52,668 nt of DNA from an uncultured Solibacteraceae bacterium (GTDB lineage Bacteria; Acidobacteriota; Terriglobia; 20CM-2-55-15): contig CAZOZZ010000006.1 of NCBI GenBank assembly GCA_964584435.1, positions 1 to 52,668 on the forward strand. Direction: 5' to 3'. The position numbers and the translations under genes were made by a program. The notes under the pieces were generated by a model, which was not told the DNA's origin, searched no databases, and worked only from the letters and a program-made list of their open reading frames with translations. This document shows positions 5,960 through 52,515 of the stretch, piece after piece. Numbering within the stretch: the stretch's first letter is position 1; each line of letters starts with the position of its first letter.

Positions 5960-6023
5960 GTCGAGCGGATCTTCAACCCCATTCCAGACCGCGAGATGGA
6001 TTTTGCATTGTTCGGGAGTGAGT

Positions 6024-7427: not shown

Positions 7428-7443
7428 CGCGCAGGCTCCCATG

Positions 7444-8238: not shown

Positions 8239-8291
8239 ACGCGGAATTCCAGTCCAGGTTCTGCGGAGACCACACGGAGTGAACCTCCGCT

Positions 8292-38900: not shown

Positions 38901-39029
38901 GTCGATAGACGCGACGAACTGTTCCATCTCGAAACCGGGCTTTGGGGTCGCCCGAACACAGGCGAGGACTTCCACCTGAAATGGTGAGAGCGAATAAATC
39001 GCCTCGATGTCTTGACGGATGCCGCTCAT
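23961..39029 (-). CDS. hybrid NRPS-PKS, modules 3-5 plus one PKS module: C*-C-A*-T-C-A-T-KS-AT-KR-ACP-C-A-T (5,022 aa)
   Basis: aa 1-348: shortened C-like domain (DIEAIYSLSPFQ; YHRALLDRW in place of HHxxxDG). C (SFSQQRLWFLDQ; HHIITDGWS, HH 501-502). Divergent A (aa about 820-1331). T (LGGHS, Ser1381). C (HHIVSDAWS). A (DFWNIGMVHK). T (Ser2445). KS (GTACSSS Cys2677, EAHGTGT, NIGH). AT (GHSLGE Ser3124; VAAHS). KR (ITGGTGGVG aa about 3604; Ser3737/Tyr3750). ACP (RGDSL, Ser3897). C (HHIVADGWS). A (DILQLGVIWK). T (GGHS, Ser4949). My residue count closes exactly on 5,022. Confidence 0.97.
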   Translation of the reverse strand: MSGIRQDIEAIYSLSPFQVEVLACVRATPKPGFEMEQFVASIDGAIDIALLRQSVEHLFRTQAVLRTSLLCQEEEAPVQIVSRVSLGAIVSTDIAALPDFLKRDASQPFELGTAPLVRFCLLQPPTGPMRLVVTYHRALLDRWAVFLLLRNLISSYDRLFAERTVDTGAVNHYRQVLLASKSHIEAHVQPHHAASSLRGFRRTDVTLPDTSVEVLRTEAFRHKSGLVGMFRDLWASVSGDSSFGLVIPGRPPSVAGSESVLGLFANTGSDSSTVDSTLTLTGDWPALGRTAFALDPDAASYIDPNVDAPFRLVIDTATLRIQALYDETRIAPSEAQALLERLASEVASPSKHEPDRSEKIPRVERASDLPVSFSQQRLWFLDQLEPGSVAYHAQGALRLRGALDIGVLRAGLNELVRRHESLRTSFFSRDGELRQVIRGPFELPLLECDLENVSSDSWPGEIQAFATRINGEPFDLTEGPLLRVALIRLGASEHVLLLTIHHIITDGWSRGVFFEELGTLYEAILDGRPSPLPELALQYADYAVWQRKWLAGEAFDEGLGYWKTKLEGAPPLSVIPTDFPRLNGVEWEAGMAKRTLPRELSPAVQALTKREGVTFYMFLLAVLKLLVFRYSGQNDVVIGTPTANRDRQELEAVIGCFVNTLALRTDVSGNPSFLNLLARVRDTALGAFANQQFPFEKIVEALQPSRDLAYNPIFQIFLNVLNLRKADLELSGLEVSPYAVEELPNRFDITLYAQHEMGRIHFELVYNARLYRPESVERILDHMTLLIEQIVESPRIPIGEYSLIRPQDHRALPDVSVPLKAKQCGAIHELFMNRAVLHPDRLAVVGESGSWSYGELNEASTRLAYRLRQIGVQSGETVAIYAAPSASLVCAVLAVLKSGCAFSILDSDNLPQRLWSIAEIASPAAIIVLDEAGNTDEFEALASNQVVLEKLQGASAAEVTANLEPCPDGILPVAVSEEAFAYVAFTSGTTGGPLGVVGTHGPVTHFLEWHTRTFGLEAKDHFSLLSGIAHDPALRDLFTPLAIGASLHIPPVIAKGNGERLLAWLREEGITVAHLTPPLAQIIPPREAAAADLSALRFVFFGGDRLLYGDAQRLHAWAPGCSFVNFYGATETPQAMAWRLLRSPELDDGLSGAPVPLGHPIDSVQLLLLNEQRRLAGVGELAEIWIRTPLLCEGYLDAEQLTRDRFQDCEPMANVRDRMYRSGDLGRYGADGSVEFVARVASHVKVRGFRVDPLEVEAAVEEHPEVRQCAVVVRDEDTETELVAFAVADASVHQVQAFLAERLPRYLLPSRIHIVETLPLTRNGKIDRAALEALGAKDDRSNEIVGPLDDVESRIAGMWTEVLNRAPIGAGDDFFLLGGHSLKAIQVANRIDREFGIPIGVRELFRFPRLRDLSNWVRAATPRRSTPITPAPVAELYLASHAQRRLWTLARLGASTAYNMQRLVLLEGELRVHCFEEALSDVIRRHEALRTTFVAVDGGLWQRIHADLSVSLNHVDCRSELNPSQSALEWAAADTEAEFDLEAGPLLRVALLKVGDDRVVLCFNVHHIVSDAWSLGILIREFARFYEARARGDQTALSPLRIHYKDYAHWQAALLHEEKTIPDRDYWRTKLAGPLAVLDLPADFPRPPVKTYSGGREHFEYDSELATGLHALSRSANATLYMTLSAIVKFLLFRLSGQSDLTVGCPVSGRQHADLENQVGFYVNVLPLRDRVDGKMTFSGLLGSVRQTALDAYAHQDYPFDLLVSELDLVRDVSRSPLFEVAITLQNVEGSELSLPGLEILPFTDPKQTSKFDLNFVFEERAGSIEGYIEYSEALFSRARIRRMTGQLQHAANEVVRDPSQRCGAIEFVPPAESEIIQSANRTDSDYPSDSTIVSLFEERAALRAGSDAVIFEENRLSYDELNLRADLLARQVTVRLAGKPTNQRYVAVFIERSEQMPVVFLAILKAGAAYVPIDTSYPASRVRFILEDCGAALALSETAHLESLRGLFGGEVLDISPTVSESEDTVLPHVSSDDVAYVIYTSGSTGQPKGCAVTHRNVVRLMKNEHFPFDFNETDTWIVAHSFAFDFSVWELYGALLYGGRAVIASRSAARNPAALRELIREHRVTVLNQTPAAFYGMIEVERGVSEHDLEQSLRYVIFGGDRLSPEELRDWVSIYPLEQVRLINMYGITETTVHVTYGPLCQEHIQGGGSISPIGVPLPETRVYVCDDEMNLQPVGVTGELFVGGTGVCRGYLNRPDLNAERFISSPFEAGERLYRTGDLGRWLSDGSLEYVGRNDRQVQIRGHRVELGEVQSALASSSAVREAVVTLWQPSDDLRDVDKRIVAYVVLEPGAPEEWKREVSAHLKATLPDYMVPSRIVDIPSVPLTGNGKTNYATLPSPDSSPPSSHANLVAREEPLAAIWRGVLRRSDVGPDDNFFDLGGHSLLLIEVHRQLQILYEREIALVDLFSYPTIGALAQFLETDESQPGPIVTAAEVRPLEARTMDVAVIGMAGRFPGASNTEEFWSNLKNGVESVRDLSDEELLAAGVSESLIRNPRYVKSKPLLDSIEYFDAEFFGIPDREAAVMDPQHRLFLECAWEALENAGYVPEQYDGRIGVYAGASLNSYLLNNLYSNQDLIESIGVYPVLIGNERDFIATRVCYKLNLTGPGVAVGTACSSSMVAVQLACQALLNSQCSIALAGGVSVKVPQVEGYLYDEGGILSPDGHCRAFDASARGTVSGSGAGIVVLKRLSEALHDGDHIAAVIKGIAVSNDGSAKVGYTAPSVGGQAAAIADAQSLAGVDPDTISLVEAHGTGTSLGDPIELAALTGVFGAGTARTGYCAIGSVKTNIGHLDAAAGVAGLIKTVLSLDRKQIPPSLNFVSPNPAVDFKNSPFFVNCKLRDWDASDSPRRAAVSSFGLGGTNAHAVLEEAPYRPVGVAARTYQLLPLSAPSGDQLEEVAGHLSNHLAARPNSGLGDVAYTLATGRRVFEHRRIVVSPDVSHASGALANTHSPHSFAAAARSGTSVAFLFPGGGAQYINMGRDLYNSEPYFREQVDHCCDVLASELGGSFRSVMYPPAGEETAAAAKLLSPSLGLPALFITEYSLAKLLMSWGIQPGAMIGHSLGEYAAACLAEVLDLKDALRIVAFRGRLFEKVAPGAMLSVQLVEERVRTLLDDSCDIAAVNLPGSCVISGTTEAIENARALFESHGVESHRLHISVAAHSRLVEPILRSFREFLETLTLGVPQIPFLSNTTGTWITDREAQDPAYWTNQLRQTVRFAEGVRSLFDDPLRVLVEVGPGSALTSVVRQHPHMSGGQSVFPTLPHALEEGQSSVATVLTGLGRLWIEGVPVDWKAFYSGQEPARVPLPGLSFNRKRLWIEPRRAGDDAGRGSTVKRAHVDDWFYTSAWRRAMPPVTEADSTRSWLILSDGGAVASGLAERLGREGHEVDLVEHPDVASLLADRAKSGCLPDRIIDFSGSAVRLNRIATAWKDLAPNRPILITEITCCAHDVTGDEAIDPLQGAVRGPVVVIGQENAYITCRSIDVGPEVAGEPRLTELLGNEILSSQPDMFVAFRHAHRWTLAHEPLRIPVGAGRLRKHGVYLITGGTGGVGAILARYLARTQRARLVLFSRHAETSGVGLAEEIERLGGEALLLSGDVSRPDDVFAAVQRTRTRYGDFDGVIHAAGTTSGSSIFTPFEELEESHFVEQSEPKLGGARALAKALEGVDLDFVLLISSNATVLGGLGLAAYAAANCAMDAFALVQNRRGVTRWITSAWDGWPTLRRERIDSSQATAMDRMEMTLEESEMAFSIVVGAPTGGVVVSSHDLFSRLDRWKDVSENRTGDKTEQSGQQDEPGTQAPQDGSIEGRLVALWKEMLGTEHIGNQESFFELRGDSLLGSRMITRLNSMFGSTLPLKSLFESPTILGLAQKIRGETESVGSRIPRAPDQDRYTLSRAQRRLWLLCQFEEGSRAYHIPLVVRLDGDLDRAALARAFTTIIGRHESLRTRFVSNGEDPVQEVLSDISWEMPFSDLSSADDAESASVCEAKRFSGLPFALDRAPLMRAQLIRLAPKRHELHLVLHHIVADGWSLSILSRELRVAYNAFRGGTSPDLPSLRLQYRDFSYWQNRFLESDEASRSASYWDRQLAGELPVLDLPADFPRPSTPSFEGDMLTLALGSNFRARIEAFATAHRATPFMALYSVLVVLLHRYSGSMDVVVGTPVAGRSHPDLEDQIGFYLNTIVLRSRIDPDVSFAEFLRQVRATCLDAYENESHPFDDVVDRDTSTRDLSHSPLFDVLISLQNAGAVDLKLDGIAVEAVAIPNKTAKYDLSFDFAAEGDDLLLGLRYRTDLFSRERIERMAAHFFELADHAITNPEVACGKLNIVPGTERSKLMTSFQGATLPLANEVTLLDLLEEHVRKTPHNAAVSFEDRTWTYQEVDSRSTEIAAYLMSRSEAAETVAAVCLERSMDLLAALLGILKAGFAYVPIDPAYPDHRCIQMLQDSGASVVLVDADTEGRVEELIGSEETKSRILPLHKSIETDNPRPLPKVGASQLAYVLYTSGSTGVPKGVEVEHGALANLLLSFKEMIGMTDKDAFLSLTTVSFDIAGLELYLPLISGGLTVIASSAMAVDGEAIGKRLARGDITLMQGTPSTWRMLLAAGWKGSPELTILCGGEALHRGLASSLFARCGRFWNVYGPTESTIWSTACRIDSNHVAEGAPPVVSIGKAIHNTSVYVLDRWLQPSALGVPGELFIGGVGLARGYRGQKMRTRERFITDGDGRRLYRTGDVVRFDSTGLLEFLGRTDHQVKVRGHRVETGEVEAALCRHESVQEAAVVCVSNDEGETALAAYIVAFGTVEASALRSHLKMLLPAYMTPSAFVTLDALPLAANGKVDRSALPEPSAFSSEAAFEEPRDAMEVAIGTVWEQVLDVRPISIHDDFFRSGGHSLAATRAVFRLQKELNVPVTMMELFRNPTIASLASLLRARPRSTEIATAASGSSDHADPVSLTPDELELLRFDE
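27225..31520 (-). other. KS-AT-KR-ACP PKS module embedded in the 5,022-aa protein
   Basis: KS Cys codon verified at 30999-31001 (gca on the plus strand). See the parent CDS for the AT, KR and ACP motifs. Confidence 0.9.
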
Positions 39030-42000
39030 CCTTCAGATCCGCTCCCTCTGTCAGGGCCGATCGACTGCAAGACACGCCGCAATCCAACCTCACTCAAATC
39101 GGTTTCCGGTTCTAAAGCGGACTCGGTAACAGGCTGACACAGTTCCCGGAGCGAAGACTCAAAGGAATTCGCCAAAGCCTGAATGGTTTCGTCCCGATAC
39201 ATAGCGGAGCTAAAGGCAAAGTCCACCAGGAGACGACCGTCTAGAATCCACGAGTTGATTTCGATACGATGAGAAGAGCGATTCGCGAGGCTCCGCTCAT
39301 GCGCCCTATCGCCTTCATCGATGCCGACAACCAGACTTCCCCCGGCCACTTGATCGAACTGTCCAAGATAATTGAACAGGATTTCGGTTCGCGCGACGCC
39401 CAACTCTTTCCGGACAGCCGGATCGTCGCCGAGGTACTTCAAGACGGAAAAGCCAAGTCCGTGCCGCGGTACCCGACTCCGTGTCTCTTGTATCTCGCGG
39501 ATGGTTTCCCCAAGCGGGCGCCCTCCGTGAATCTTTAGAAGAAACGGATAGATGCTGGTGAACCAGCCAATCGTTCGCGTCGGGTCGACGCGGCCCAACG
39601 TCTCACGCCCGTGAGCTTCGAGATCGACCAAAAGCTTACAATCTCCAAGCCAGACCGCGAGTGCCTGAGTCAGACACCCAAGCAACGCATCGTCCATTCT
39701 GATACGCCCCGACTTTGAGAGGCTCCCTAGAACCAGCTTCGTCGGATCTCGGTCCAGAGCGAGGGTGGCATGTGCCTCGGTCGCAACGGTATTGCTGTCA
39801 GGTGAGGCATTCAGGTCGAGCGGCAAGGAGGCCGTTTTGACGGTGACGATCTCCCGCCAATATGGAAGCTCCTTGACGAAACCTCCGGACTGGACCTCGT
39901 GGTCGAGTTGGGCGATCCATGCTTCCACGGGATTTGTCGGCAACAGTAGGACCGGACTCCCACTTTGAAGTTGTTGGTAGGCGGTTTCGAGATCCTCCGT
40001 AAGAATGCGGCAGGACACGCCGTCCGAGATCAGGTGATGAAGCACCAACAGGAGCCGACCGGGGTTGCCTTCGGAAGATTCGAATAATGCGGCTCGAACC
40101 AGCGGAGGCTCGGAAAGGGTCAGGCTCTCTTGAAGTCGCCGCGCTATCGAGTCAAAAGAGGTAGACCCATCGGGGTACACTTCAAGGGGGATCGAACCAC
40201 CCTTAGGGTCGACATGGCGAATCCAGCCATCGGAATCCTTTTCGAACCAGGAACGCAGGGCGGGGTGATGTGCGGCAACACGATCCAGGGCCTGCCCGAG
40301 CAACTCGGACGAAGTGCCGGGAGCGATGTCCAGATGCAGGGACATATTGTGGTGATCCGGGTTGGGTTGATTCTGATCAAAGAACCACCGCTGCGCAGGA
40401 AGTAGTCGCGACTCCGACGCAACCGCAGCAATTTCGGGAGTTGAACCCGCAGAGACCGAGTCCGGCACGAGAGCTAACTCGGCAACGGTTGGGAAACGGT
40501 GCACATCGCGGATGCTGATTGGCAGGCCAGCGGCGCGGGCGCGCGAAACGACCTGCATGGCGATTATGGAATCCCCGCCCAACTCGAAAAAATTATCGAA
40601 AATACCAACCTGCCGCAGTCCAAGCACCTCCGCCCAGATGGAAGCCAGGCCGGATTCCACGGTGTCTCGGGGAGCGGCATACGCCTCGAGCACTTCGGCG
40701 GAACCGTCACGAGGCGTCGGCAAAGCCGCCCGATCGAGCTTTCCGTTCCGTGTCAGGGGAATCCGATCAATCGCCAAGAAGAAGGTCGGGACCATATGAC
40801 CCGGTAGTCGCCCTGCGCAGAACTCCCGTAACTCCGTGGTTGCAGCAGGGGAGGAACCATCACGGAATACGATGTAGGCGACCAGGTGGGTGTTCGCGTC
40901 GGAATCCTGTGTCTTTCGCGCGTTGACCACCACGTCTTCGATCTCGGAGTGCGCGCGAAGGGCTGCTTCAATTTCGCCGGGCTCGATGCGAAAGCCATGA
41001 AGTTTGAGTTGATTGTCCGCGCGACCCCGGTATTCGATGTCGCCATCGGGCAGCAATCGCGCAAGGTCGCCGGTGCGATAAAGCCGGTCTCCTGGCCGGA
41101 ACGGACTCGCAATGAAGCGCTCTCGCGTCAGTTCAGGACGGTTCAGGTATCCCCGGGCGACTCCAGCACCACCCACAAACACCTCGCCGACGACGCCCAT
41201 GGGACTTGGCATCAGTTCGGAAGTCAGAACGTAGAACGACAAATCTGGGATCGGCCTGCCGATCCGTCTGGATCCGATCAGCTTCGCATCCCCGGAGGTC
41301 AGAGGCCGATACGTCACATGCACCGTCGTCTCTGTGATGCCGTACATATTCACAAGCTCTGGCAAACGATCGCCATGACGCTCGAACCACGGACCCAGAG
41401 TTTCCAGGTCCAGGGCCTCACCCCCGAAAATGATCAGGCGCAACTTCGGATCACGCGACGAGTCCGCGTCGGCTCTCATAAACTCCCGGAATGCCGAAGG
41501 CGTCTGATTGAGCACGGTGACAGCTTCGTCACACACAAGCCGGTGGAAGGCGGACGCATCGCGCCGAATCCAGTAAGGTGCGATGACCAGCCTGCCGCCA
41601 TACGTCAAGGCACCGAAAATCTCCCAAACCGAGAAGTCGAACGCGCAAGAATGAAAAAGAGTCCAGACGTCCCGATTGTTAAACTCGAACGATGGCTGCG
41701 TTGCAGAAAACAGGCGTGCCAGCTGGCTGTGCTGAACCAGGACGCCCTTCGGTTTTCCAGTCGACCCCGACGTATAAATGACGTAGGCGAGACTCTCCGG
41801 TTGAAGCTTCGAAACCGGGTTCTCGGCGGAGCACCGCGTAATCTGCGGATCGTCCGCATCCAGAAGAATCGCCTCGAGAGCATCACGGTCACCCAGAAGC
41901 TCACCGACTCTGGACGTGGTAATCAAGATTGGCGCGCGGCAATCATCCAGTATCAGCGAGAGCCGCTCGACCGGATATGACGGATCGAGTGGCACGTATG

Positions 42001-45000
42001 CCGCGCCGGACTTCAGTACAGCGAGAATGCTGACGATCAAGTCCAGCGACGGATCGAGGCAAACCGCAACCATGCTCTCCGTCCCGATTCCTTTCGAGAG
42101 GAGATAATGCGCGAGTCGGTTCGCCTTGTCGTTCAACTCCCGGTACGTCAGTCGGTCTTTCTCACAAACGATGGCGATGCCTTCCGGACTTCGTTCCGCC
42201 CACTCTGCGATCACATCGGGTACCGAGGTGGAAACCGTGAAGTCTCGTTCGGCCTCGTGTAGCCGCAGCAGCCTCGCTTGCTCGCTTGGTGTCGACAGTG
42301 ACAACTTGCAGATCGGCTGGCTTGTGACGGTCGCGAGCGATTCGATGAGGTTTCCGTAGCTCGCCAGCAAACGCTCAGCGTCGTCGGATGAGTAGCGATC
42401 AATGCTGTAGTCGCAATCGAGGATCAGCTCTTCGCCGGTGTCGATCACGTTCAGCATCAATTCGAAATCTGAAAAGTGGACCGGATGCGGGAACAACCGA
42501 AGCGTCAGGTCTCCGGTGTCCGCCAGCTTTCCGGGCGTATCCAGGTTGAAGGTCGCCGATATCAACGGTGACCGGCTGAGGTCGCGGCGAGGATCGACAC
42601 TCTTGAGCAACGCGGCGAAGGGATAATCTGAATTCGTATACGCGTCGCCCAACACACGCCGAATGGTCGCGACATGTTCGGCAACCGTTGAATCGGGATC
42701 CACTTCGACGGGAACCGGCAGAATATGAGTGCAATAGCCAACAAGGGCGTCACTGTTCTCGAGACCTCGCCCAGCCACGGAAATACCGATCGATAACTCG
42801 CGCTGCCCCGTCAAGCCATGCATTAGAGCTGTGTAAACCGCATAGAGTCCAATGAACGGCGTGCACTTGAGTTCCGAACAGCAGGCGAACAAGTCTCTCC
42901 GCGCTGCGGACGATAGCGTCAACGTTGCCCGGCGGCTCTGGTAGGTTCGTTCCGCGGAGGGGATCGTGTCGGAAGGAAGGGCCAGGGGGGTCATTCGGCC
43001 GGAACATTTTTCCGTCCAGTAACGCTCCTGAGCTGCATAGGAGCTGGTTGCTGAAAACCGCTCCTGCCACTCGACATATTCCCGATATTGCATGGCCGGA
43101 CCGAGTTCCGGATTCAAGCCGCGACAGGCCAAAGAGTACAAGGAAAGCAGTTCCCCCATCATATTAGTCATGGACCATCCATCCGTAACGATATGGTGGG
43201 CTGTCATTACCAGGACGTGTTCATCGGCATCGAGACGAAGCAAGTCGCAATAGAACAGTGGGCCGGTGTCCAGCGCCATTGGGGTATGGTTCTTCTCTTC
43301 AAACCACCGCTCGATTGCCTGCTCTCTTTCCGAGCCGGCGACGGACGTAAAATCGACAATGCCAAGCTCTCTGGCCTCGTCTGGCAACACCCGCTGAAAT
43401 TCGCCCTGGAGATCGAATACGGTCCGAAGCGCTTCGTGGCGCTCGACAAGATGGCGCACGGACGCGTTGAGCTTCGCGCTGTCGATTGGGCCCCGTAACT
43501 TCAAGCTCAGGCCGGTTTGATAAGCGAGCGAGCCAGAAGGGTGTATCTGGGACATCAGCAGCAACTGACGCTGCGCTTCGGTTAGAGGAAAGGTGTCCTG
43601 CGGAGAAGACGAACCAGCCTGTGCGCCTGGAGCAATGAAACCGCCCGAGCGCAATTCGTCGATCGCAGACTCTGCGGAGCGTACGACGTGATCCAGGTCG
43701 TCTTCCGTGTGCGCCGTCGACAGGAAACATCCCCTCCACTCCCACACGTAAACGCCTTTTTCGATCAGGTGGTAAAAAAACAGGTCCAGGTTGCCGGTAA
43801 ACTGAATACGGAAAGCGGATCCAAAATTTACAGCGTGCAGCGGCGCGTTACGCTCGTCGAAAGCTCGATTCAGACGGACGGCCAGTTCCTCGGTGCGCCG
43901 ATTCAGGCCCTCTTGCAGTGCGGGCCCCTGCCGTTTCAACTCGTTCAGAGTCGCCACTGCCGCGACCATGGTCAGCGGATGCTGACAAAATGTTCCACCG
44001 AAGAACGTTCGTTCCGCACCGGGCAACGAATCATCCCCATAGTTCCAGGCTCCGCCGTCGATCCCATCGAGAAACTCCCGCTTCCCCGCGACCACTCCGA
44101 TCGGCATGCCTCCACCGATCACCTTCCCGTAAGTGACGATGTCCGCATCGATACCGAAATAGGCCTGCGCACCTCTTGGGTGCAGCCGGAAGCCGGAGAT
44201 CATCTCGTCGAAGATCAAAGCCACTCCACCGTCACGCGTGACGTTGCGTAAGTCGCGAAGAAACTCGACGGGCTGAAAATCGAGACTGAGGTTTTGGACG
44301 GGTTCTACCAGAACGGCGGCGATTTCGTCCTGGTGCTTGCGAATGTAGTCCAGCGCATCCGACGATCCATATTCGAGGACGATCGTTGCGGCAATAGACT
44401 CCGGTGGAATTCCGGGCGCCATGGCCTCGCTTGCCGGCACGCCCTCGATCTCGGCCGGCAGAACCAGCGTCTGGTCGGAATGGCCGTGATAGCTACCCGC
44501 GAACACGACCAGAAGCCGCCTCCTGGTGGACGTCCGGGCCAGGCGGATGGCGGCCATCACCGCTTCAGTTCCGGAGTTACAGAAAGACGCGCGCTCACTG
44601 CCGGTCAAATCACAAATGAGCGCTGCAGCCTCGCCCGCCAGTTCCGAGCGCGGGCCCAGGAGTATTTCCTGACCAGCATGCTCTCGAAAGGCATTCGTCA
44701 AGAACTCCGGGTGATGTCCGAACAGGGTGACGCCAAACCCATTGGTGATGTCGATGTATTCATTTCCGTCCAGGTCCCAGAACCGCGAACCTGCCGCACG
44801 AGCGCCGACGATAGGATAGAGAATCTCCTTGAGTGGAAGCCGGAATCCGACACTTGCCCGGCTGTCCGCCAAAACGTCACGGTATTGTGCAGCATGATGC
44901 TTGGACTTTGCCGTCCGCCTTGTATATCTCTTAATCAAGGCTGTAACGTGACGCTGTTGCTGTGGGGTGAACGATACGCCGAAACGATCGCCGCGGCTGG

Positions 45001-48000
45001 ACACATGTCGTGTCTTTCCCCTCTTCGAAGGTTTCGACGCCTGCGCCGCAGGAGCTTCCGCTACGGCCCGGGGCACCACAGCCTTGCCGTCAACTTCACG
45101 CAACATCTCAAGCTGCCGCCGCATGATCTCGAGTTGGTCGTTGACGATCTGATGAAGACTTCCGGCAGTTGCATCCGCAGGGATCATTGCGCCCGGAACA
45201 ACCGGCAAGTCGTCCGTGGACGGTGGAGTTGCCCGATCCAGCAGAAGATCCGCCTCGGGAGGAACTGTCTCGTCCGCAATGTGTCGCGCCAAGGCGCCCA
45301 CCTCGGACAATGCATCGAGCAGATCTGCAAGCTGGATCGTCAACCCGAATCGTTGCTTCACCAACCGATTAACCTTAATCAGTGCCAGTGAATCCAGACC
45401 GAGTTGGAAAAAGGAATCCGCACCGTTGATCTTCCCCTGCGGTATTCCAGACACCTCGGAAACGGTCTCGAGAACTCCCGCAAGCACTCGATTGAAGTGG
45501 TTATCGTCTTTCACCGTGATTGTCGATGCTGTAGGTGTTGGATTTGAAACGTCAGTTTGACCGGAAACGTCTGCTTCCGCAAGACGATGCCGCGCAATCC
45601 AGAAGCTCTCGCGCTCGAAGGGATAGGGAGGCAGCCGGACCCGCCTTCGCTGCTCGAATGCATAGAATCCGCTCCAGTCGACTGCGGCCCCGGAGACCCA
45701 AAGCCGCCCGAGCGTCTCCAGAAGCAGTTCGGAATCCGCCCGCTCAACCTGTGGATGGCGCAAGGAAGTCAGCACGAGCGGCGCTTCCGCCCCAGCGCAA
45801 TTCTGGATCGTCAACGTCGCAAGTGTCCGGCCAGGCCCAACTTCCAGAAGGATCCGGCTTGAATCTTGCGTCAGTGTCTGTATGGCCGTCGAAAAACGCA
45901 CGGGTTGCCGCATGTGACGGACCCAGTATGCAGGATCCATCGACTCCTCGGGCGTGATCCATGTTCCGGTCAGATTGGAAACCCAGGGAATCTGGGGCTG
46001 CGAAAACGAGAGGGCTTCCAGGAATCGGCTGAACTCGTCCAGAACCGATTCCACTTCCCGGGAGTGGGCGGGTGCAGAAAAATGAAGGTCGGCAAACTCC
46101 ACATCAGCGGAACTCAACTTCGACTTGAGATCGGAGATTTTGTCTGCCGGACCTGAAACCACGCACGATTCAGGAGCATTGACGGCAGCGAGCGAAAGCC
46201 CTTCATTCAGGTAAGGCGCCAAGTCGCCTTCGGACAGGCACACACTGAACATTCGCCCCTTCGGAAGTCCCTCAAGTAATCGTCCCCGCAGAACAACGAG
46301 TGACAGAGCATCGTCCAGACTGAAGACACCCGAAATGCAGGCAGCGACGTATTCACCGAGGCTGTGTCCGATCATAGCCGCTGGTCGAATTCCCCAGGAG
46401 ATCCACAACTGCGCCAGTGCGTACTCGGTAGTGAATAGTGCAGGTAGCAATAACGAAGCGGAATCCATGCAATCCCCAACTGTGCCGCTTCCGAAAATCA
46501 CGTCCCGGATGTCCACACCCAGAGGGGTCTCTAATTTTTCAGCACAAGAATCCAGATGCTGCCTGTACGCAGGCTCGGAACGATATAATCCCTCCCCCAT
46601 TCCGACGTATTGCGACCCTCCGCCGGGAAACAAAAAAGCTATACTCCGGGCTTCGGTCGCAATCTCGCCAACATCAGAGACCGGTTCGCGTTCCGAGGCG
46701 ACCGCCGAATCGGTCGCGTAGAGATAGAACTGCCGAGCTGAAAACTCCCGACGTCCGCATGCCAGAGTAAAAGCCGCGTCCTCCAACGAGACTTCGGCGT
46801 TCTCACGAAGAAATTTGACCAGCTCCGCGCCAGTCCGGGTTAACGCACTCGCGGTCTTTGCAGAAGCCACCAGCAGTTGATGAGGCCGTGTCGAAACGGT
46901 GACGGGTTCCGTTGCCGGAGCCTCTTCCAAGACCACGTGAGCGTTGGTTCCCCCAAGACCGAATGAGCTCACGGCAGCCCGCCGGGGCTGCCCCTGGGTC
47001 GCCCCCCACTCCGTAAGCCTCGTATTGACAAAGAAAGGTGTGCGGGCGAAGTCGATCTCCGGGTTAGGATCCTCAAAATGCAGGGTAGGTGGAATCTGCT
47101 TATGATGAAGCGACAGCGCCGCCTTGATCAGGCCGACCACGCCGGCCGCGGTGTCCAAATGCCCGATGTTGGATTTAACGGAGCCAATGGCACACCTGCG
47201 GACTCCATCGCCTCGGGCACCGCCATACGCCCGGCTTAGCGCCGCGACCTCCAGGGGGTCGCCAACCAAAGTGCCGGTTCCATGCGCCTCCACGTATCCG
47301 ATCGATCCCGGGTCGACCCCAGCAACGGATAAAGCTTCCAGAATGACCTGGGTTTGACCCTGCACACTCGGCGCGGTGAAACCCGCCTTCACATCTCCAT
47401 CATTGTTGACGGCGGAGCCACGAATGACGGCGTGAATGTGATCGCGGTCCGAGAGCGCCTCCGGTAGCCGCTTCAGCACGACGATCGCGACGCCGCTTCC
47501 AGCCGAAATTCCTCCTGCCTTCGCGTCAAAGGGGCGGCAGCGTCCGTCCTTCGATAGAATTCCTCCTTCGACGTACAAGAAGCCTTCATCCTGAGGAACG
47601 GGGATGCTGGCCCCGCCCGCGAGCGCAATTTCGCACTCGCCACTCAGAATGCTCTGGATGGCCAAATGAACGGCCACCATTGAAGTAGAGCATGCTGTGG
47701 CAACGGTGACACTTGGCCCCTCGAGTCCGAGCTTGTAGGAAACGCGACTTGCCAGAAAGTCCTTTTCGCTTGCCGTGAGGAGTTCGTGGTAATCGGTCTG
47801 CTGCATCAGCGCCGGATCGCTCGCGAGATTGTGCAGCAGGTATGTGTTCATGCCACAGCCGGCAAACACCGCGACGCGGTCGTGCGGACGGCCGTGAATG
47901 TAGCCGCAACCTTCCAGGGCATGCCACGACGATTCGAGAAACAGCCGCTGTTGCGGATCCATCAACTCCGCCTGCCGGGGCGTGTAGCCAAAGAATGCGG

Positions 48001-48241
48001 CATCGAAGAGGTCTGCCCCGTCGATGACTGCTCGACTCCGGACATACTTCGGATCGTTGAAGAGAGCACTATCTACGCCGGCACGCCGTAGAGTCTCCTC
48101 AGGAATCTCTCTTACGGAATCGACGCCGTGGCATAGATTGCTCCAAAACTCCTTCGCGTCTCGCGCGCCCGGCACGCGACACTCGATTCCGATGATCGCA
48201 ATGGAACTGTCCGGGTCTATGCCGATCTCGGGAGAGACCAT
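39026..48241 (-). CDS. hybrid PKS-NRPS: KS-AT-ACP-AMT-C-A-T-E (3,071 aa)
   Basis: KS (ATACSTS Cys184, EAHGTGT, SNIGH). AT (IAFLFPGGGSQ aa 534; GHSLGE; APAHS). ACP (LGLDSL, Ser951). Class-III (GSA-type) aminotransferase domain, aa about 1085-1535 (LDGNEYIDITNGFG, CNSGTEAVMAAIRLAR, IFDEMISGFR, TYGKVIGGGMPIG with putative PLP Lys1373). C (AHHIVTDGWS). A (YTSGSTGKPKG from Tyr2153; code DFWNIGMVHK). T (LGGDSIIAM, Ser2558). E (LLPAQRWFFDQ; HHLISDGVS). Confidence 0.97.
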   Translation of the reverse strand: MVSPEIGIDPDSSIAIIGIECRVPGARDAKEFWSNLCHGVDSVREIPEETLRRAGVDSALFNDPKYVRSRAVIDGADLFDAAFFGYTPRQAELMDPQQRLFLESSWHALEGCGYIHGRPHDRVAVFAGCGMNTYLLHNLASDPALMQQTDYHELLTASEKDFLASRVSYKLGLEGPSVTVATACSTSMVAVHLAIQSILSGECEIALAGGASIPVPQDEGFLYVEGGILSKDGRCRPFDAKAGGISAGSGVAIVVLKRLPEALSDRDHIHAVIRGSAVNNDGDVKAGFTAPSVQGQTQVILEALSVAGVDPGSIGYVEAHGTGTLVGDPLEVAALSRAYGGARGDGVRRCAIGSVKSNIGHLDTAAGVVGLIKAALSLHHKQIPPTLHFEDPNPEIDFARTPFFVNTRLTEWGATQGQPRRAAVSSFGLGGTNAHVVLEEAPATEPVTVSTRPHQLLVASAKTASALTRTGAELVKFLRENAEVSLEDAAFTLACGRREFSARQFYLYATDSAVASEREPVSDVGEIATEARSIAFLFPGGGSQYVGMGEGLYRSEPAYRQHLDSCAEKLETPLGVDIRDVIFGSGTVGDCMDSASLLLPALFTTEYALAQLWISWGIRPAAMIGHSLGEYVAACISGVFSLDDALSLVVLRGRLLEGLPKGRMFSVCLSEGDLAPYLNEGLSLAAVNAPESCVVSGPADKISDLKSKLSSADVEFADLHFSAPAHSREVESVLDEFSRFLEALSFSQPQIPWVSNLTGTWITPEESMDPAYWVRHMRQPVRFSTAIQTLTQDSSRILLEVGPGRTLATLTIQNCAGAEAPLVLTSLRHPQVERADSELLLETLGRLWVSGAAVDWSGFYAFEQRRRVRLPPYPFERESFWIARHRLAEADVSGQTDVSNPTPTASTITVKDDNHFNRVLAGVLETVSEVSGIPQGKINGADSFFQLGLDSLALIKVNRLVKQRFGLTIQLADLLDALSEVGALARHIADETVPPEADLLLDRATPPSTDDLPVVPGAMIPADATAGSLHQIVNDQLEIMRRQLEMLREVDGKAVVPRAVAEAPAAQASKPSKRGKTRHVSSRGDRFGVSFTPQQQRHVTALIKRYTRRTAKSKHHAAQYRDVLADSRASVGFRLPLKEILYPIVGARAAGSRFWDLDGNEYIDITNGFGVTLFGHHPEFLTNAFREHAGQEILLGPRSELAGEAAALICDLTGSERASFCNSGTEAVMAAIRLARTSTRRRLLVVFAGSYHGHSDQTLVLPAEIEGVPASEAMAPGIPPESIAATIVLEYGSSDALDYIRKHQDEIAAVLVEPVQNLSLDFQPVEFLRDLRNVTRDGGVALIFDEMISGFRLHPRGAQAYFGIDADIVTYGKVIGGGMPIGVVAGKREFLDGIDGGAWNYGDDSLPGAERTFFGGTFCQHPLTMVAAVATLNELKRQGPALQEGLNRRTEELAVRLNRAFDERNAPLHAVNFGSAFRIQFTGNLDLFFYHLIEKGVYVWEWRGCFLSTAHTEDDLDHVVRSAESAIDELRSGGFIAPGAQAGSSSPQDTFPLTEAQRQLLLMSQIHPSGSLAYQTGLSLKLRGPIDSAKLNASVRHLVERHEALRTVFDLQGEFQRVLPDEARELGIVDFTSVAGSEREQAIERWFEEKNHTPMALDTGPLFYCDLLRLDADEHVLVMTAHHIVTDGWSMTNMMGELLSLYSLACRGLNPELGPAMQYREYVEWQERFSATSSYAAQERYWTEKCSGRMTPLALPSDTIPSAERTYQSRRATLTLSSAARRDLFACCSELKCTPFIGLYAVYTALMHGLTGQRELSIGISVAGRGLENSDALVGYCTHILPVPVEVDPDSTVAEHVATIRRVLGDAYTNSDYPFAALLKSVDPRRDLSRSPLISATFNLDTPGKLADTGDLTLRLFPHPVHFSDFELMLNVIDTGEELILDCDYSIDRYSSDDAERLLASYGNLIESLATVTSQPICKLSLSTPSEQARLLRLHEAERDFTVSTSVPDVIAEWAERSPEGIAIVCEKDRLTYRELNDKANRLAHYLLSKGIGTESMVAVCLDPSLDLIVSILAVLKSGAAYVPLDPSYPVERLSLILDDCRAPILITTSRVGELLGDRDALEAILLDADDPQITRCSAENPVSKLQPESLAYVIYTSGSTGKPKGVLVQHSQLARLFSATQPSFEFNNRDVWTLFHSCAFDFSVWEIFGALTYGGRLVIAPYWIRRDASAFHRLVCDEAVTVLNQTPSAFREFMRADADSSRDPKLRLIIFGGEALDLETLGPWFERHGDRLPELVNMYGITETTVHVTYRPLTSGDAKLIGSRRIGRPIPDLSFYVLTSELMPSPMGVVGEVFVGGAGVARGYLNRPELTRERFIASPFRPGDRLYRTGDLARLLPDGDIEYRGRADNQLKLHGFRIEPGEIEAALRAHSEIEDVVVNARKTQDSDANTHLVAYIVFRDGSSPAATTELREFCAGRLPGHMVPTFFLAIDRIPLTRNGKLDRAALPTPRDGSAEVLEAYAAPRDTVESGLASIWAEVLGLRQVGIFDNFFELGGDSIIAMQVVSRARAAGLPISIRDVHRFPTVAELALVPDSVSAGSTPEIAAVASESRLLPAQRWFFDQNQPNPDHHNMSLHLDIAPGTSSELLGQALDRVAAHHPALRSWFEKDSDGWIRHVDPKGGSIPLEVYPDGSTSFDSIARRLQESLTLSEPPLVRAALFESSEGNPGRLLLVLHHLISDGVSCRILTEDLETAYQQLQSGSPVLLLPTNPVEAWIAQLDHEVQSGGFVKELPYWREIVTVKTASLPLDLNASPDSNTVATEAHATLALDRDPTKLVLGSLSKSGRIRMDDALLGCLTQALAVWLGDCKLLVDLEAHGRETLGRVDPTRTIGWFTSIYPFLLKIHGGRPLGETIREIQETRSRVPRHGLGFSVLKYLGDDPAVRKELGVARTEILFNYLGQFDQVAGGSLVVGIDEGDRAHERSLANRSSHRIEINSWILDGRLLVDFAFSSAMYRDETIQALANSFESSLRELCQPVTESALEPETDLSEVGLRRVLQSIGPDRGSGSEG
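43640..44975 (-). other. aminotransferase (AMT) domain inside the 3,071-aa PKS-NRPS
   Basis: See the parent CDS. Putative PLP lysine codon at about 44123-44125 (TYGKVIGGG). Confidence 0.85.
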
Positions 48242-48244
48242 GGA

Positions 48245-51200
48245 CTATTCGCCTCCCTCGCTGGTGCTGCCGGCACGGCTGGCTTTGCGGGCACTCCTTT
48301 GCTGTGCGCGGTTAGTCCGTCGCACTTCCGGTACGACTGTCCGTGTCAGCCCGGAGAATCCAGCATCGCCGGTATGTGAGATAGCCCCGGCTAACATGTG
48401 GATCGTCGGGTACTCGAACATCTCCCTCATCGAAGGCAACCGGCCGAATGAGGCCTCGCCGATCCGACGTCTTACACGAACCATCACCAACGAATCTCCA
48501 CCCAGATCAAAAAAATTGTCGTGTATACCCACCTGGTCGATCCGCAGCTCTTCCGCCCAGATGGCCGCGATGCTGGCCTCGACGTGATTCAACGGTTGGG
48601 CGAGTTCTTCGGAGAGCTTCGGCCGTCTCTCCCCCGGCGACGGCAAAGCGCGAAGGTCGATCTTTCCGTTCGCCGTGAGTGGAAACGACGCCAGGGTCAT
48701 GAACGAAGACGGCAGCATATAGTCGGGAAGAGTCTGCTGCAGGAAAGCACGCAACTCGGACACGGAAGGCGGATCGGCCGGATCTGCAGCAATCACATAA
48801 GCTCGCAACTCGGCGTCACCGGAAAGACCTGCCCGTTCGGGAAAGTGAGCTGTGACTACGCAATCGTGCACTTTGGGATGCCTCGCGACGCTCGCCTTGA
48901 TCTCTTCGGTCTCGACTCGATATCCCCGTATTTTGACTTGACCGTCTTTCCGTCCCAGAAACTCGATATCTCCGTCGGAAAGATACCTGGCGAGATCCCC
49001 GCTACGATAGACACGTGCGCCCGGCTCGTCGCGGAACGGATCGGCCAGGAATCGTTCTGCGTTTAAATCAGGTCGGTTCAGATAGCCCGCCGCCACGCCG
49101 GCACCGCCGACATAGATCTCCCCCGCGACGCCGACTGGTACTGGTTTGCCGACCGAATCGAGGATGTAGATCCACATGTCCTCCATTGCTGGACCAATGA
49201 CGCTTCGGCCCACTGCCACGTCGGCCTTCACCAGCCGACGATACGTGGTATGGACCGTTGTTTCAGTAATGCCATACATGTTCATGACGCGAGGGCTTTC
49301 ATCACCGTGCCGTTCGAACCATCCGGCAAGATCCTTGACTGCAACTTCTTCGCCCCCCAGGATGACCCAGCGGAGCCTGAGCCGCAGCTCGGCATCACGC
49401 TGTTCTTCCGCCTTCATCAGCTGCTTGAAAGCGGAGGGTGTCTGAGTGAGCATCGTCACCTTGTGTTCGCTGAGCCATCTATAATAATCGTCGGGTGAGC
49501 GACTGACCCAATAAGGAATGATCACCAGTTTTCCGCCGTGCCCGAGACATGCGAATATCTCCCAAACCGAAAGATCGAAAGCGAAGGAATGAAACAGGGT
49601 CCAGATGTCCTGGGGGCCGAACTCGTAAAGAGAGGAAGTCGATTGAAGCAGCCTCACTACATTGTAATGAGTGATGATCGTCCCTTTGGGCCTTCCGGTC
49701 GATCCGGACGTGTAGATCAGGTATGCGGGATCGGATGGCGACGGACGCCTTGCTGAAGTAGGGTTACTCGCGGACTGGCTGAAATCGAGCGAGTCCATGG
49801 ACACGAATTCGACGCCGTCCGCGGAAACCGCCATCGGGTCCGTCCCGACCACAACACGTACTCCAGAATCCGTAAGCAGCAATTCCTGACGTTCCACCGG
49901 GTAGGCCGGATCGATAGGCACGTACGCACCACCTGCCTTCAGTATCCCCACAATCCCGGTCACGAGATCCGACGATCGTTCCATACAAATCCCAACAAAA
50001 GCACCCGGTCGGATACCTTGCACGGTAAGATGCGCAGCGACGATGTTCGCCCGGCGATTCAGTTCGCTGTAGGTCAGCGGGACTCCCTCAAAAGAGATCG
50101 CTTCTGCGTCCGGGGAGCGTTCCACTTGTTCCTCGATCAGGTCTACCAGCGTTTTGCAAGGAGCATGGGTCACGCGGTCGGGGTGAAAGCCAGTCAACAC
50201 AAGTTCTCGTTCGTCCGGAGGAAGGATGGCCAGATCTCGGATCGCCGTGTCTGGGTGACTCACAATCTCTTCAAACAGGAACAAGAGCTCCCGCTTCAAG
50301 AACTCGATCGCCTCAACCGAAAACGCCGTAAGGCTGTGGTCGATGTTCATCCGAACGTCCAGCTCTTCGTTGTATTCGCTGACCTCGATCGCCAAAGGCG
50401 TCTTCTCCGACCCGTGGCGCATGCTCACTTGCTCCACCTGAATCCCATCAAATTCAACAGCATAGTTGTGTTTTTGATAGGTCAGAACGATGTCGTAGAG
50501 CTGCGGACGCCCTTCCTTGTGCAGGCCCACGCGCCGGTTGATCTCGTGCAACGGGCAACGCTGGTGACGGTAGTCTTTTCGCAGCTCCCTACCGATCGCT
50601 TTCAGTAGCTCGACGACGCTCAGATCCAGGCCAAGGCGGAACCACGAAGGCGTAACGCTGGTGAACAGGCCCACCGTCCTCTTGAGAACGGCATTGCTAC
50701 GGTTGAGCGTTGGAAGTCCAATGATGAAGTCCTCTCGCCCCTCCGGCTGAGCAAATCGAATGTAGAGCGCTGCCAGGATCAAATGGAAGGTGGAAACGCC
50801 GTGTGACGAGGCAAAAGACTGCATCCGATCGTACAATTGCCTCGAAATCATCAGGACCGACCGTCGACTTCGTATTTCCGTGCCAAACCCCTGGCGCTCG
50901 ATCATCGCGGCCGGTATGGACTGAAATCGTTCCTCCCAATATCGAAGGTCTTCGGCCAATCGCCTGGAGTGCGCCACATCCGTTTCTTTCAGGACGTAAT
51001 CGGCGAACGATCCGCGTGGAATGGGATCCCCCGCATCTCCTGACACAAGCGAGCTATAGATCACGGCCAAATGTTGAACCAACAAGGAATGCCCGTAGGC
51101 GTCGATGATCAGATGGTGGTAAACGTGAAACCAGGAGTATTCGTCGTCGGAAAGCCGAGCGAAGGCAAAATAAAAGAGGGGCTCACCAAACATCGTGAAC

Positions 51201-51529
51201 GGAACGTCGATGCGATGGCTCATCCAGGCGGCCCATTCCTCACGGGCCCCAGCCTTCGAAGAAAGGTCAAAGTAATCAAGCGCAGGTCGGAAATGCGGCA
51301 GGACTTCCTGTTCAGGCACATCCCCGGCTTCACGCAAGACGATCCGAAGCGCGTCGTTCTCCTCGATCAAGATTCCGATGGCACGCTCAAACAGGTCGCG
51401 GTCTATCGGGCCCCGAAACCGAAGGTGCCCGCCCATATTGTAAAAGGGCTTGTCCTGGTGCACCATCTGGTCGAACCAGATACCATTCTGACAAGCTGTC
51501 AGCGGCAACGTCCCCTTGGTGCTACTCAT
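48245..51529 (-). CDS. NRPS loading module: C(starter-like)-A-T (1,094 aa)
   Basis: N-terminal C domain (LPLTACQNGIWFDQ...; YHHLIIDAYG, HH 138-139). A (LKAGGAYVPID, YTSGSTGRPKG aa 606-616, FDLSVWE, NMYGITETTVH, NGKIDL; code DLWTIGMVHK). T (LGGDSL, Ser1013). Basic C-terminal tail of about 40 aa. AGGGAGGA lies 5 nt upstream of the ATG. Confidence 0.95.
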   Translation of the reverse strand: MSSTKGTLPLTACQNGIWFDQMVHQDKPFYNMGGHLRFRGPIDRDLFERAIGILIEENDALRIVLREAGDVPEQEVLPHFRPALDYFDLSSKAGAREEWAAWMSHRIDVPFTMFGEPLFYFAFARLSDDEYSWFHVYHHLIIDAYGHSLLVQHLAVIYSSLVSGDAGDPIPRGSFADYVLKETDVAHSRRLAEDLRYWEERFQSIPAAMIERQGFGTEIRSRRSVLMISRQLYDRMQSFASSHGVSTFHLILAALYIRFAQPEGREDFIIGLPTLNRSNAVLKRTVGLFTSVTPSWFRLGLDLSVVELLKAIGRELRKDYRHQRCPLHEINRRVGLHKEGRPQLYDIVLTYQKHNYAVEFDGIQVEQVSMRHGSEKTPLAIEVSEYNEELDVRMNIDHSLTAFSVEAIEFLKRELLFLFEEIVSHPDTAIRDLAILPPDERELVLTGFHPDRVTHAPCKTLVDLIEEQVERSPDAEAISFEGVPLTYSELNRRANIVAAHLTVQGIRPGAFVGICMERSSDLVTGIVGILKAGGAYVPIDPAYPVERQELLLTDSGVRVVVGTDPMAVSADGVEFVSMDSLDFSQSASNPTSARRPSPSDPAYLIYTSGSTGRPKGTIITHYNVVRLLQSTSSLYEFGPQDIWTLFHSFAFDLSVWEIFACLGHGGKLVIIPYWVSRSPDDYYRWLSEHKVTMLTQTPSAFKQLMKAEEQRDAELRLRLRWVILGGEEVAVKDLAGWFERHGDESPRVMNMYGITETTVHTTYRRLVKADVAVGRSVIGPAMEDMWIYILDSVGKPVPVGVAGEIYVGGAGVAAGYLNRPDLNAERFLADPFRDEPGARVYRSGDLARYLSDGDIEFLGRKDGQVKIRGYRVETEEIKASVARHPKVHDCVVTAHFPERAGLSGDAELRAYVIAADPADPPSVSELRAFLQQTLPDYMLPSSFMTLASFPLTANGKIDLRALPSPGERRPKLSEELAQPLNHVEASIAAIWAEELRIDQVGIHDNFFDLGGDSLVMVRVRRRIGEASFGRLPSMREMFEYPTIHMLAGAISHTGDAGFSGLTRTVVPEVRRTNRAQQRSARKASRAGSTSEGGE

Positions 51530-52344: not shown

Positions 52345-52515
52345 CTACCGAGAAGGAACGCTCTTACGATCAGACGCCAACACCAACAGCAATCCCATGA
52401 GCGGCGTAAGGAATACCGAACACAAGAAGTAGCCCCAGAAACCTAATTTGCGATCACGTCCAAAACTCGCTATGAGACCACCAACACCGATGTAGACCAA
52501 AGCCTGCAAAAGCAT
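52345..52515 (-). CDS. small membrane protein, 56 aa (below the ORF-track size cut-off)
   Basis: Hand translation: MLLQALVYIGVGGLIASFGRDRKLGFWGYFLCSVFLTPLMGLLLVLASDRKSVPSR*. Two hydrophobic helices. GGAGG (52525-52529) lies 9 nt upstream of the ATG. Confidence 0.45.
   Translation of the reverse strand: MLLQALVYIGVGGLIASFGRDRKLGFWGYFLCSVFLTPLMGLLLVLASDRKSVPSR

Follow-up and report, generated by a model that had tools for sequence, protein, structure and literature searches.

A predicted vicinal-diamino unit from an aminotransferase module placed behind a Thr-like loading module in a Solibacteraceae assembly line

The window analyzed here, the entire 52,668-nucleotide contig CAZOZZ010000006.1 from an uncultured Solibacteraceae bacterium, carries genes predicted to form a co-linear, translationally coupled operon for a hybrid assembly line, part nonribosomal peptide synthetase (NRPS) and part polyketide synthase (PKS). 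In order, these genes encode a type II thioesterase (TEII); the proteins A_1094, B_3071, C_5022, D_2611, and E_2614; and a phosphopantetheinyl transferase (PPTase). All are on the minus strand and tightly packed, with neighbors that overlap by 4 or 8 nucleotides or leave a gap of 3, and the GC content is even along the window (55–60%). The subject of this report is the junction between A_1094, a loading module of condensation, adenylation, and thiolation domains (C-A-T), and B_3071, which opens with a PKS module that contains an aminotransferase. Domain architectures (Table 1) come from Pfam together with domain-to-domain searches. Codes of the A domains were read from an alignment anchored on the A4 and A5 motifs; the amino acids were assigned to them according to the Stachelhaus codes.

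B_3071 begins directly with ketosynthase, acyltransferase, acyl carrier protein, and aminotransferase domains (KS-AT-ACP-AMT), followed by C, A, T, and epimerization (E) domains. A sequence-only reading of this DNA had proposed this order for the 3,071-residue protein, and the order of the Pfam matches agrees; the span that it singled out (43640–48208) corresponds to residues 12–1534, exactly KS through AMT. The catalytic elements are intact: the KS motifs TACSTS (Cys), EAHGTGT (His), and KSNIGH (His); the ACP serine motif GLDSL; and the pyridoxal phosphate (PLP) lysine of the AMT, K1373 in VTYGKVIGGG. This lysine aligns with that of VTYGKIIGGG in 6KFM, the structure of the MycA AMT. A loss of PLP-binding residues was looked for by alignment, and both the lysine (K289 in domain numbering) and the aspartate D261 proved invariant among 11 AMT sequences.

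Over its full length, the AMT matches the sequence of the MycA crystal structure with E 1.6e-141 (475 bits); glutamate-semialdehyde aminomutases match far more weakly (E 1e-55 or worse). Together with the Pfam Aminotran_3 match, this bears out the proposal that the AMT is of the MycA type, and as a sequence comparison the 6KFM match may be taken as decisive for the fold and active site. The KS, for which a non-elongating type had been named as possible counterevidence, retains its Cys-His-His motifs and is typed as elongating.

Table 1. Positions of the features in the window and, where given, in the encoded proteins
Feature	Window coordinates	Strand	Protein residues	Remarks
B_3071 (3,071 aa)	39026–48241	−		KS-AT-ACP-AMT-C-A-T-E; Pfam and domain searches
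B_3071 KS domain	46727–48208	−	12–505	typed as elongating, NRPS-accepting (hybrid)
B_3071 ketoacyl-synt			12–262	Pfam 3.6e-69
B_3071 Ketoacyl-synt_C			270–390	Pfam
B_3071 AT (Acyl_transf_1)	45797–46636	−	536–815	Pfam 3.2e-45; GHSLGE, APAH
B_3071 ACP (PP-binding)	45278–45475	−	923–988	Pfam; GLDSL
B_3071 AMT, class-III PLP aminotransferase	43637–44986	−	1086–1535	MycA AMT match
B_3071 Aminotran_3			1144–1499	Pfam 3.4e-46
B_3071 PLP lysine codon	44123–44125		1373	VTYGKVIGGG
B_3071 C-A-T-E	39026–43600	−		C, HHIVTDG; A, DFWNIGMVHK (Thr)
B_3071 Condensation			1548–1992	Pfam
B_3071 AMP-binding			2012–2366	Pfam
B_3071 second PP-binding				Pfam
B_3071 second Condensation-type (E) stretch				Pfam
A_1094 (C-A-T loading-module gene)	48245–51529	−		Pfam
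A_1094 C			6–443	HHLIIDAYG
A_1094 A			466–956	DLWTIGMVHK
A_1094 T			987–1050	GGDSL
A_1094 tail			1051–1094	
TEII (242 aa)	51522–52250	−		operon's first gene; 8-nt overlap with next gene; Pfam Thioesterase 2.6e-41
C_5022	23961–39029	−		half C (degenerate), C-A-T, C-A(Thr)-T, KS-AT-KR-ACP, C-A(Gly)-T
C_5022 half C	37980–39029	−	1–~350	Pfam profile positions 2–184 only
C_5022 PKS module	~27150–31520	−	~2500–3940	KS-AT-KR-ACP
C_5022 AT	~29100–29950			VAAH
D_2611	16133–23968	−		C-A(Thr)-T-C-A(Ile/Val-like)-T-E
D_2611 second C	19200–20600	−		
E_2614 (terminating module)	8292–16136	−		C-A(Asn)-T-C-A(Ile/Val-like, embedded methyltransferase)-T-TE
E_2614 methyltransferase	10317–11336	−	~1600–1940	Methyltransf_12, 1.1e-11
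Sfp-type PPTase	7444–8238	−		cluster's last gene; Pfam ACPS and AASDHPPT_N
Hydrophobic open reading frame (56 aa)	52345–52515	−		
Serine resolvase	6053–6670			
GIY-YIG	5237–5959			weak match
DUF4344 metallopeptidase	3935–5041			
WD40-repeat protein	940–2439	+		

The stop codon of A_1094 lies 3 nucleotides from the B_3071 ATG, which is preceded by GAGGGAGG, resembling a ribosome-binding site. The narrow gap and this site argue that the two genes are coupled. The A domain of A_1094 has the code DLWTIGMVHK, identical at eight of ten positions to the Thr code DFWNIGMVHK; the latter is found without change in the A domain of B_3071, and in four A domains of the cluster in all. The earlier description of the upstream carrier as the T domain of a C-A-T module with a Thr-like code holds, and "Thr-like" seems a fair label for the loading module. 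A_1094 is the only cluster protein that ends in a T domain but has no downstream C partner. Its 44-residue carboxyl-terminal tail (RRTNRAQQRSARKASR) is basic and Gln-rich, and resembles the linkers between T and KS in relatives where the two modules are fused. The counterpart proteins of two related loci, L007 and L095, have tails that are likewise basic and Gln-rich, in the manner of T-KS linkers.

The first C domain of A_1094 is full length, has an intact HHxxxD motif, and lacks an upstream T domain in the operon; it stands in the same first-module position in L007 and L095. It is an outlier: its identity to 115 elongation and post-AMT C domains does not exceed 25%, compared with 55% to its L007 ortholog. 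The best single-stretch match in the PDB is 7C1H, which we take to be the starter C domain of RzmA (E 1.6e-34, 122.7 bits), followed by the first C domain of PvdL. (At 25.6% identity, the 7C1H match was rejected as strong proof of a starter domain.) The best NCBIfam whole-protein matches, all below cut-offs, are the region of PvdL that follows its acyl-ligase/T unit, MxcG, SolG, and EntF. In PvdL, MxcG, and EntF, the donor used by the first C domain is an acyl or aryl group. The A_1094 domain appears starter-like, and N-acylation of the loaded residue is probable, not established. No acyl donor gene is encoded in the window or in the L007 and L095 flanks. Describing the KS substrate as "(N-acyl)aminoacyl," as had been done before, is reasonable because this C domain is probably starter-like.

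A homology search with the KS-to-AMT region proved informative. (Most proteins found with the AMT alone were short AMTs, either free-standing or incomplete, that say little about architecture.) Across the searches with the AMT, the KS-to-AMT region, and the A_1094 C domain, the best homologs carry the names Blastocatellia, Pyrinomonadaceae, and Thermoanaerobaculia; by these names, the source is probably a member of the Acidobacteriota. The closest homolog, P0121, is 55% identical over the whole region and belongs to L007, a locus in a Blastocatellia metagenome-assembled genome (MAG). There, the gene order is ABC transporter; Band_7; periplasmic binding protein; an unknown; DUF481; TEII; C-A-T; and KS-AT-ACP-AMT-C-A(Thr). 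The C-A-T protein has 1,105 residues and the canonical Thr code. The L007 KS is about 63–65% identical to that of the window, varying with the alignment. Neither a fatty-acyl-AMP ligase (FAAL) or other acyl ligase nor an ACP was found in the 6 kb upstream.

Searching with the C domain of A_1094 brought up C-T didomain proteins of 49–53% identity that have HHxxxDAYGHS in common; one of them is P0250, in locus L095. This locus (6048–21698) encodes A(Thr)-T, a PhyH-type oxygenase, an alpha/beta-hydrolase, C-T, and KS-ACP-AMT-C-A(Thr)-T-E. Identity to the window is 60% for the KS, 63% for the AMT, 48% for the post-AMT C domain, and 50% for the starter C domain. The first four L095 proteins look like a shuttle for modified threonine; we liken them to the SyrB1/SyrC-style transfer of modified Thr onto a C-T protein in syringomycin synthesis. 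The window, L007, and L095, three diverged loci, all keep the same elements at the junction: starter-type C-(A)-T; KS-(AT)-ACP-AMT; and C-A(Thr)-T(-E). The FAAL priming that had been named as an objection finds no support in the relatives: over the 6–10 kb examined upstream of the junction in L007 and L095, neither a FAAL nor an ACP is present.

What primes the KS was approached through the KS itself. A set of 80 AMT-containing metagenome loci was collected by AMT alignment and annotated with profiles made from the window's own domains. Among the KS-AT-ACP-AMT modules sampled, 32 follow a PKS module and 6 follow a FAAL-like, low-scoring domain that resembles an A domain. The same loci supplied an NRPS-context set: 29 KSs that stand behind genuine C-A-T in modules without an AMT. 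In a neighbor-joining tree of 117 KSs, the B_3071 KS pairs with that of L007 (bootstrap 94) inside a clade of 34 members (bootstrap 100). This clade holds 29 of the 29 KSs that follow C-A-T, and none whose context is PKS or genuinely FAAL; the single member with an automatic FAAL label sits behind a frameshifted NRPS A-T. When 91 KSs from a protein search were added (208 total), the clade grew to 124 members and kept its bootstrap of 100.

Identities and profiles give the same assignment. The B_3071 KS shares 44–55% identity with NRPS-context KSs; with the KSs of other AMT modules the figure is 37–45%, and no FAAL-context KS exceeds 45.5%. Profiles built only from KSs outside the window score it at 670.6 bits (NRPS context), 503.5 bits (PKS context), and 471.8 bits (FAAL context), a margin of 167 bits for the NRPS-context over the PKS-context profile. 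These results support an elongating, NRPS-accepting KS, unlike the fatty-acyl- or polyketide-accepting KSs of most AMT modules. The classification asked for by the sequence-only reading, hybrid versus fatty-acyl clade, thereby falls on the hybrid side in both tree and profiles, and its interpretation that the KS extends an (N-acyl)aminoacyl thioester gains in silico support. A recent duplication of the cluster's second KS, in C_5022, was considered as the source of this KS and rejected; the two are only 55% identical.

Elsewhere, the junction occurs within one polypeptide chain. Among the 120 best matches to the KS-to-AMT region (P0121–P0240), eight are fused proteins: four of the form C-A-T-KS-AT-ACP-AMT (P0184, P0203, P0213, and P0217) and four of the form A-T-KS-AT-ACP-AMT (P0182, P0196, P0225, and P0231). 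All eight fall within the enlarged KS clade. Their A domains score 435–508, as genuine NRPS A domains do (FAAL-like domains score about 100), and their T and KS domains are joined by short linkers of basic, Gln-rich sequence. To the same clade belong another 82 proteins, which start with a KS. The three such loci that were looked up all adjoin the end of an NRPS: C-A(Gly)-T in L092, A(Val)-T in L093, and a frameshifted C-A(Pro)-T in L094. The codes of the feeding modules specify Pro (7), Val (3), Gly, Gln-like, and Thr. With the proteins clustered at 90% identity and loci L089–L094 included, the family counts at least 90 members, which suggests that AMT modules with a hybrid KS are common, not rare, in sequence space. 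L093 and L094 are minimal clusters; the former comprises a free-standing A(Val)-T, KS-AT-ACP-AMT-C-A-T, and C-A-T-TE, ending in a thioesterase (TE).

The remainder of the B_3071 module points to a different ancestry. Its AMT is 68.5% identical to that of L007; the next-closest AMT relatives, at 56–60%, are from PKS- or FAAL-primed modules, and the large hybrid-KS family averages 50%. Profile scores are 718 bits on PKS- or FAAL-primed AMTs and 653 bits on hybrid-family AMTs; the AMTs of the window, L007, and L095 all score 65–72 bits higher on this "classical" profile. Similarly, the post-AMT C domain is closest to those that occupy the post-AMT position in classical modules. The AT falls in with ATs from hybrid modules. 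Because KS and AT are of hybrid type, and AMT and post-AMT C of classical type, the module looks like a mosaic, in which an NRPS-accepting KS(-AT) is joined to an ACP-AMT-C block of the iturin/microcystin type. That the mosaic is common to the window, L007, and L095 suggests a single old recombination event, and the module seems to have arisen independently of the larger hybrid-KS family.

The extender unit is harder to predict. The AT has GHSLGE, but APAH where malonyl-specific ATs have HAFH (the HAFH/YASH specificity motif). The corresponding motif is AAAH in L007, VAAH in the window's second AT (C_5022), and HAFH or RAFH in other ATs of the hybrid clade. The best PDB matches are 5YDA, the broad-specificity SpnD AT, and the ZmaA AT 4QBU (249 bits each), then CurL (213 bits). 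ZmaA uses hydroxymalonyl-ACP. Because the APAH motif is non-canonical, the identity of the extender is uncertain: it would be malonyl or methylmalonyl by default, and the uncertainty extends to the substituent at C-2 of the new residue.

These observations can be assembled into a model. A_1094 would activate a Thr-like amino acid and load it onto its own T domain, and the starter-type C domain probably N-acylates the residue with an acyl group supplied in trans. By way of its basic carboxyl-terminal tail, the T domain would hand the (N-acyl)aminoacyl thioester to the B_3071 KS, for condensation with a malonyl-type unit from the cis AT. The resulting gamma-(acyl)amino-beta-keto thioester on the ACP would be the substrate of the MycA-type AMT, which would change the beta-ketone to a beta-amine. 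The unit then present on the ACP would be 3-amino-4-(acyl)amino-5-hydroxyhexanoyl, a vicinal diamine that amounts to the amino analog of a statine unit. The next C domain, whose use of this donor is predicted, would pass the unit to Thr, which the E domain should epimerize to D-Thr. About seven more residues and one unit from KS-AT-KR-ACP (KR, ketoreductase) would follow before TE release. After D-Thr, the expected order on the line is X; Thr extended by KS-AT-KR (statine-like); Gly; Thr; D-Ile/Val-like; Asn; methylated Ile/Val-like; and TE.

We consider this explanation as a whole, an A_1094-primed KS-AT-ACP-AMT building a vicinal-diamino unit, to be probable, and the vicinal diamine itself is reasonably inferred from the domains. 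By analogy to iturins, the TE might cyclize the chain through the new amine. For this step, the hydroxyls of four Thr residues and the one derived from the KR would serve equally well, with no site preferred. We would give an even chance to the fuller picture, which combines a widespread logic, an independently recombined module, and a lipopeptide of about nine residues whose N-terminus is 3,4-diamino-5-hydroxyhexanoate derived from N-acyl-Thr, the amine being a possible handle for macrocyclization.

Several points weigh against NRPS priming and the diamine. The contig ends 418 nucleotides upstream of TEII in every assembly with these genes. The identical A_1094 protein occurs in five public metagenome contigs, all of which stop at or before the window end; the organism's own upstream neighborhood is consequently unseen. 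In two loci, L032 and L058, a C-A-T gene immediately precedes KS-AT-AT/ACP-AMT, which is followed by an insert of about 400 residues and then C-A-T; despite the upstream C-A-T, their KSs type as PKS/FAAL-like (about 620 versus 395 bits). Gene order alone is for that reason no proof of NRPS priming, and it was rejected as the sole criterion. The trees are of the neighbor-joining kind, with KS classes labeled by genomic context and in-cis fusions, not by characterized enzymes. The AMT and post-AMT C domain come from a lineage that normally serves fatty-acyl- or polyketide-primed modules, and acceptance of a gamma-acylamino-beta-keto substrate by the AMT is assumed, not shown. Moreover, the starter-type assignment of the A_1094 C domain draws on weak similarity (the 7C1H identity and the sub-threshold NCBIfam matches above); the AT departs from the GHSxG-plus-HAFH signature of malonyl-CoA-specific enzymes; and no genes for unusual extender units are visible in the window or L007.

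Some of these points would fit priming in the manner of MycA, with a fatty acyl group delivered to the B_3071 KS by a FAAL and ACP beyond the contig end. The product would then contain a beta-amino fatty acid of the ordinary kind, as iturins do, and A_1094 would have its role elsewhere or none at all. Most sampled AMT modules do have a PKS (32) or FAAL (6) context, the AMT and the C domain behind it are of that lineage, and the sequence that might hold such genes is missing for this organism. Yet the KS is strongly of the NRPS-accepting type, far from FAAL-context KSs in identity; neither relative has a FAAL or ACP near the junction; and A_1094, only 3 nucleotides away, would be left without a partner. 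KS typing and the relatives together make a FAAL just beyond the contig end unlikely, and we regard MycA-like priming as extremely improbable.

Alternatively, the junction could be real without a free vicinal diamine being kept. If the Thr alpha-amine were unacylated, or if the beta-amine reacted on-line, a gamma-lactam, an imidazoline formed with the N-acyl carbonyl, or an acyl migration could give a heterocycle or a differently acylated unit. Such 1,2-diamines are, as general chemistry, reactive beside amides and thioesters, and many relatives lack a full C domain ahead of A-T-KS-AT-ACP-AMT, which adds to the weak similarities of the starter C domain. Against this, A_1094 has a full-length C domain that retains HHxxxD and is conserved at 50–55% identity in L007 and L095, and the AMT is followed by a C domain of its own, an arrangement also seen in iturin-type lines. 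In those lines the beta-amine survives to the end. Loss of the free diamine is, on balance, unlikely. A mosaic module might also have an AMT that is bypassed or inactive on this substrate, a leftover of recombination between hybrid-type KS/AT and classical-type AMT/C, in which case a beta-keto or tetramate-like unit would result. The AMT is full length, however, with its catalytic Lys and Asp conserved; the mosaic is kept in three diverged loci with AMT identities of 63–68%, which argues for purifying selection; and amino-acid-derived beta-keto substrates appear to be routinely paired with an AMT in another family, which numbers at least 88 AMT modules with a hybrid KS. Bypass is very unlikely in our estimation.

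How the putatively A_1094-primed module compares with known systems clarifies what would be new. MycA and ItuA, for mycosubtilin and iturin synthesis in Bacillus, have the KS-ACP-AMT-C-A-T core in common with B_3071, and the 6KFM match extends to the AMT itself. The MycA AMT converts beta-ketoacyl-ACP to beta-aminoacyl-ACP; MycA has no cis AT, and its KS is primed by a fatty acyl group from an in-cis acyl ligase and ACP. L095 likewise lacks a cis AT, whereas the window module has one. B_3071 resembles AMT modules generally in that the AMT is fused after the ACP, the PLP residues are present, and a C domain is directly downstream. It differs in what feeds the KS: by clade, by profile, and by the C-A(Thr-like)-T upstream, this appears to be an NRPS rather than a fatty acyl or polyketide chain, and the predicted product is a beta,gamma-diamino acid rather than a beta-amino fatty acid.

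McyE and NdaF (microcystin and nodularin), as well as the cyanobacterial FAAL-PKS-AMT lipopeptide lines of the puwainaphycin type, have KS-AT-ACP-AMT-C-A-T in one protein. Domain order is the same in the window, whose AMT and post-AMT C domain group with metagenome AMT modules located behind a PKS or FAAL unit. The KSs of this type, in contrast, receive a polyketide or fatty chain, are 37–45% identical to the window KS, and fall outside its clade. Statine-type NRPS-to-PKS modules (C-A-T followed by KS-AT-KR-ACP, as in ZmaA of zwittermicin synthesis and in C_5022) have the same KS clade and AT lineage. They also extend an amino acid by one ketide. In B_3071 an aminotransferase takes the place of the ketoreductase, so the predicted outcome is a beta-amine ("amino-statine") instead of a beta-hydroxyl.

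In biotin synthesis, BioF and BioA provide a chemical analogy. BioA, an aminotransferase of the class-III PLP fold, converts 8-amino-7-oxononanoate to 7,8-diaminononanoate. Here too, a ketone beside an amino-bearing carbon becomes a vicinal diamine, but the likeness is one of analogy only, not close sequence relationship. Moreover, these enzymes are free-standing and act on a free acid, unlike B_3071, with no carrier protein or assembly line.

To our knowledge, the products ascribed to assembly-line AMT domains are all beta-amino fatty or polyketide acids, as in iturins, microcystins, and puwainaphycins. We know of no characterized line whose AMT acts on an amino-acid-derived beta-keto thioester, and of no characterized member of the hybrid-KS AMT family. 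If the model is correct, the NRPS-to-PKS junction has a new outcome, an amine instead of a hydroxyl, and a new class of peptide building block is predicted, the beta,gamma-diamino acids. The survey suggests that many environmental bacteria use the logic of an NRPS-fed AMT, and three-gene minimal clusters such as L093 and L094 should be easy to reconstitute. The B_3071 mosaic, a natural case of KS-AT recombined with ACP-AMT-C, is of interest for engineering. The module is a predictable recombination of known parts, yet it predicts a new type of residue, and its logic appears to be widespread. Since such recombination is to be expected, no principle is overturned.

Downstream of B_3071, the A-domain codes read DPRHFGFQAK, DFWNIGMVHK, and DILQLGVIWK (Gly) in C_5022; DFWNIGMVHK and DAFFMGVTFK in D_2611; and DLTKVGEVGK (Asn) and DAFFLGVTFK in E_2614. 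C_5022 starts with a truncated, degenerate condensation-like domain, which has HRALLDR at the active-site motif HHxxxDG; it comes immediately behind the B_3071 E domain and is itself directly followed by an intact C domain. Farther along, C_5022 contains the second PKS module of the line, KS-AT-KR-ACP, in cis behind a Thr module; the product would accordingly be expected to contain a statine-like gamma-amino-beta-hydroxy unit as well. The KS of this module provided a case of NRPS-accepting KS from within the cluster. In D_2611, the second C domain opens with a motif (DVYPMSDIEKGMVFHS) of the kind typically seen in C domains placed behind an E domain, and the preceding module has no E domain; this C domain may be a dual E/C domain. 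The methyltransferase embedded in the last A domain of E_2614 predicts a methylated Ile/Val-like residue at the carboxyl terminus.

At the upstream edge, the short hydrophobic open reading frame just before TEII has no Pfam match; of the five exact-match contigs, four (L001–L004) have it annotated as a gene. When the GTDB species genomes were scanned with A_1094, no true relative came up; a 35-residue match in a Roseburia MAG proved spurious. On the other side, a serine resolvase, a GIY-YIG match, and genes for DUF4344 and WD40-repeat proteins lie past the PPTase gene, which places the end of the cluster at the PPTase. This adjoining region (940–6670) may be a mobile-element boundary of the cluster.

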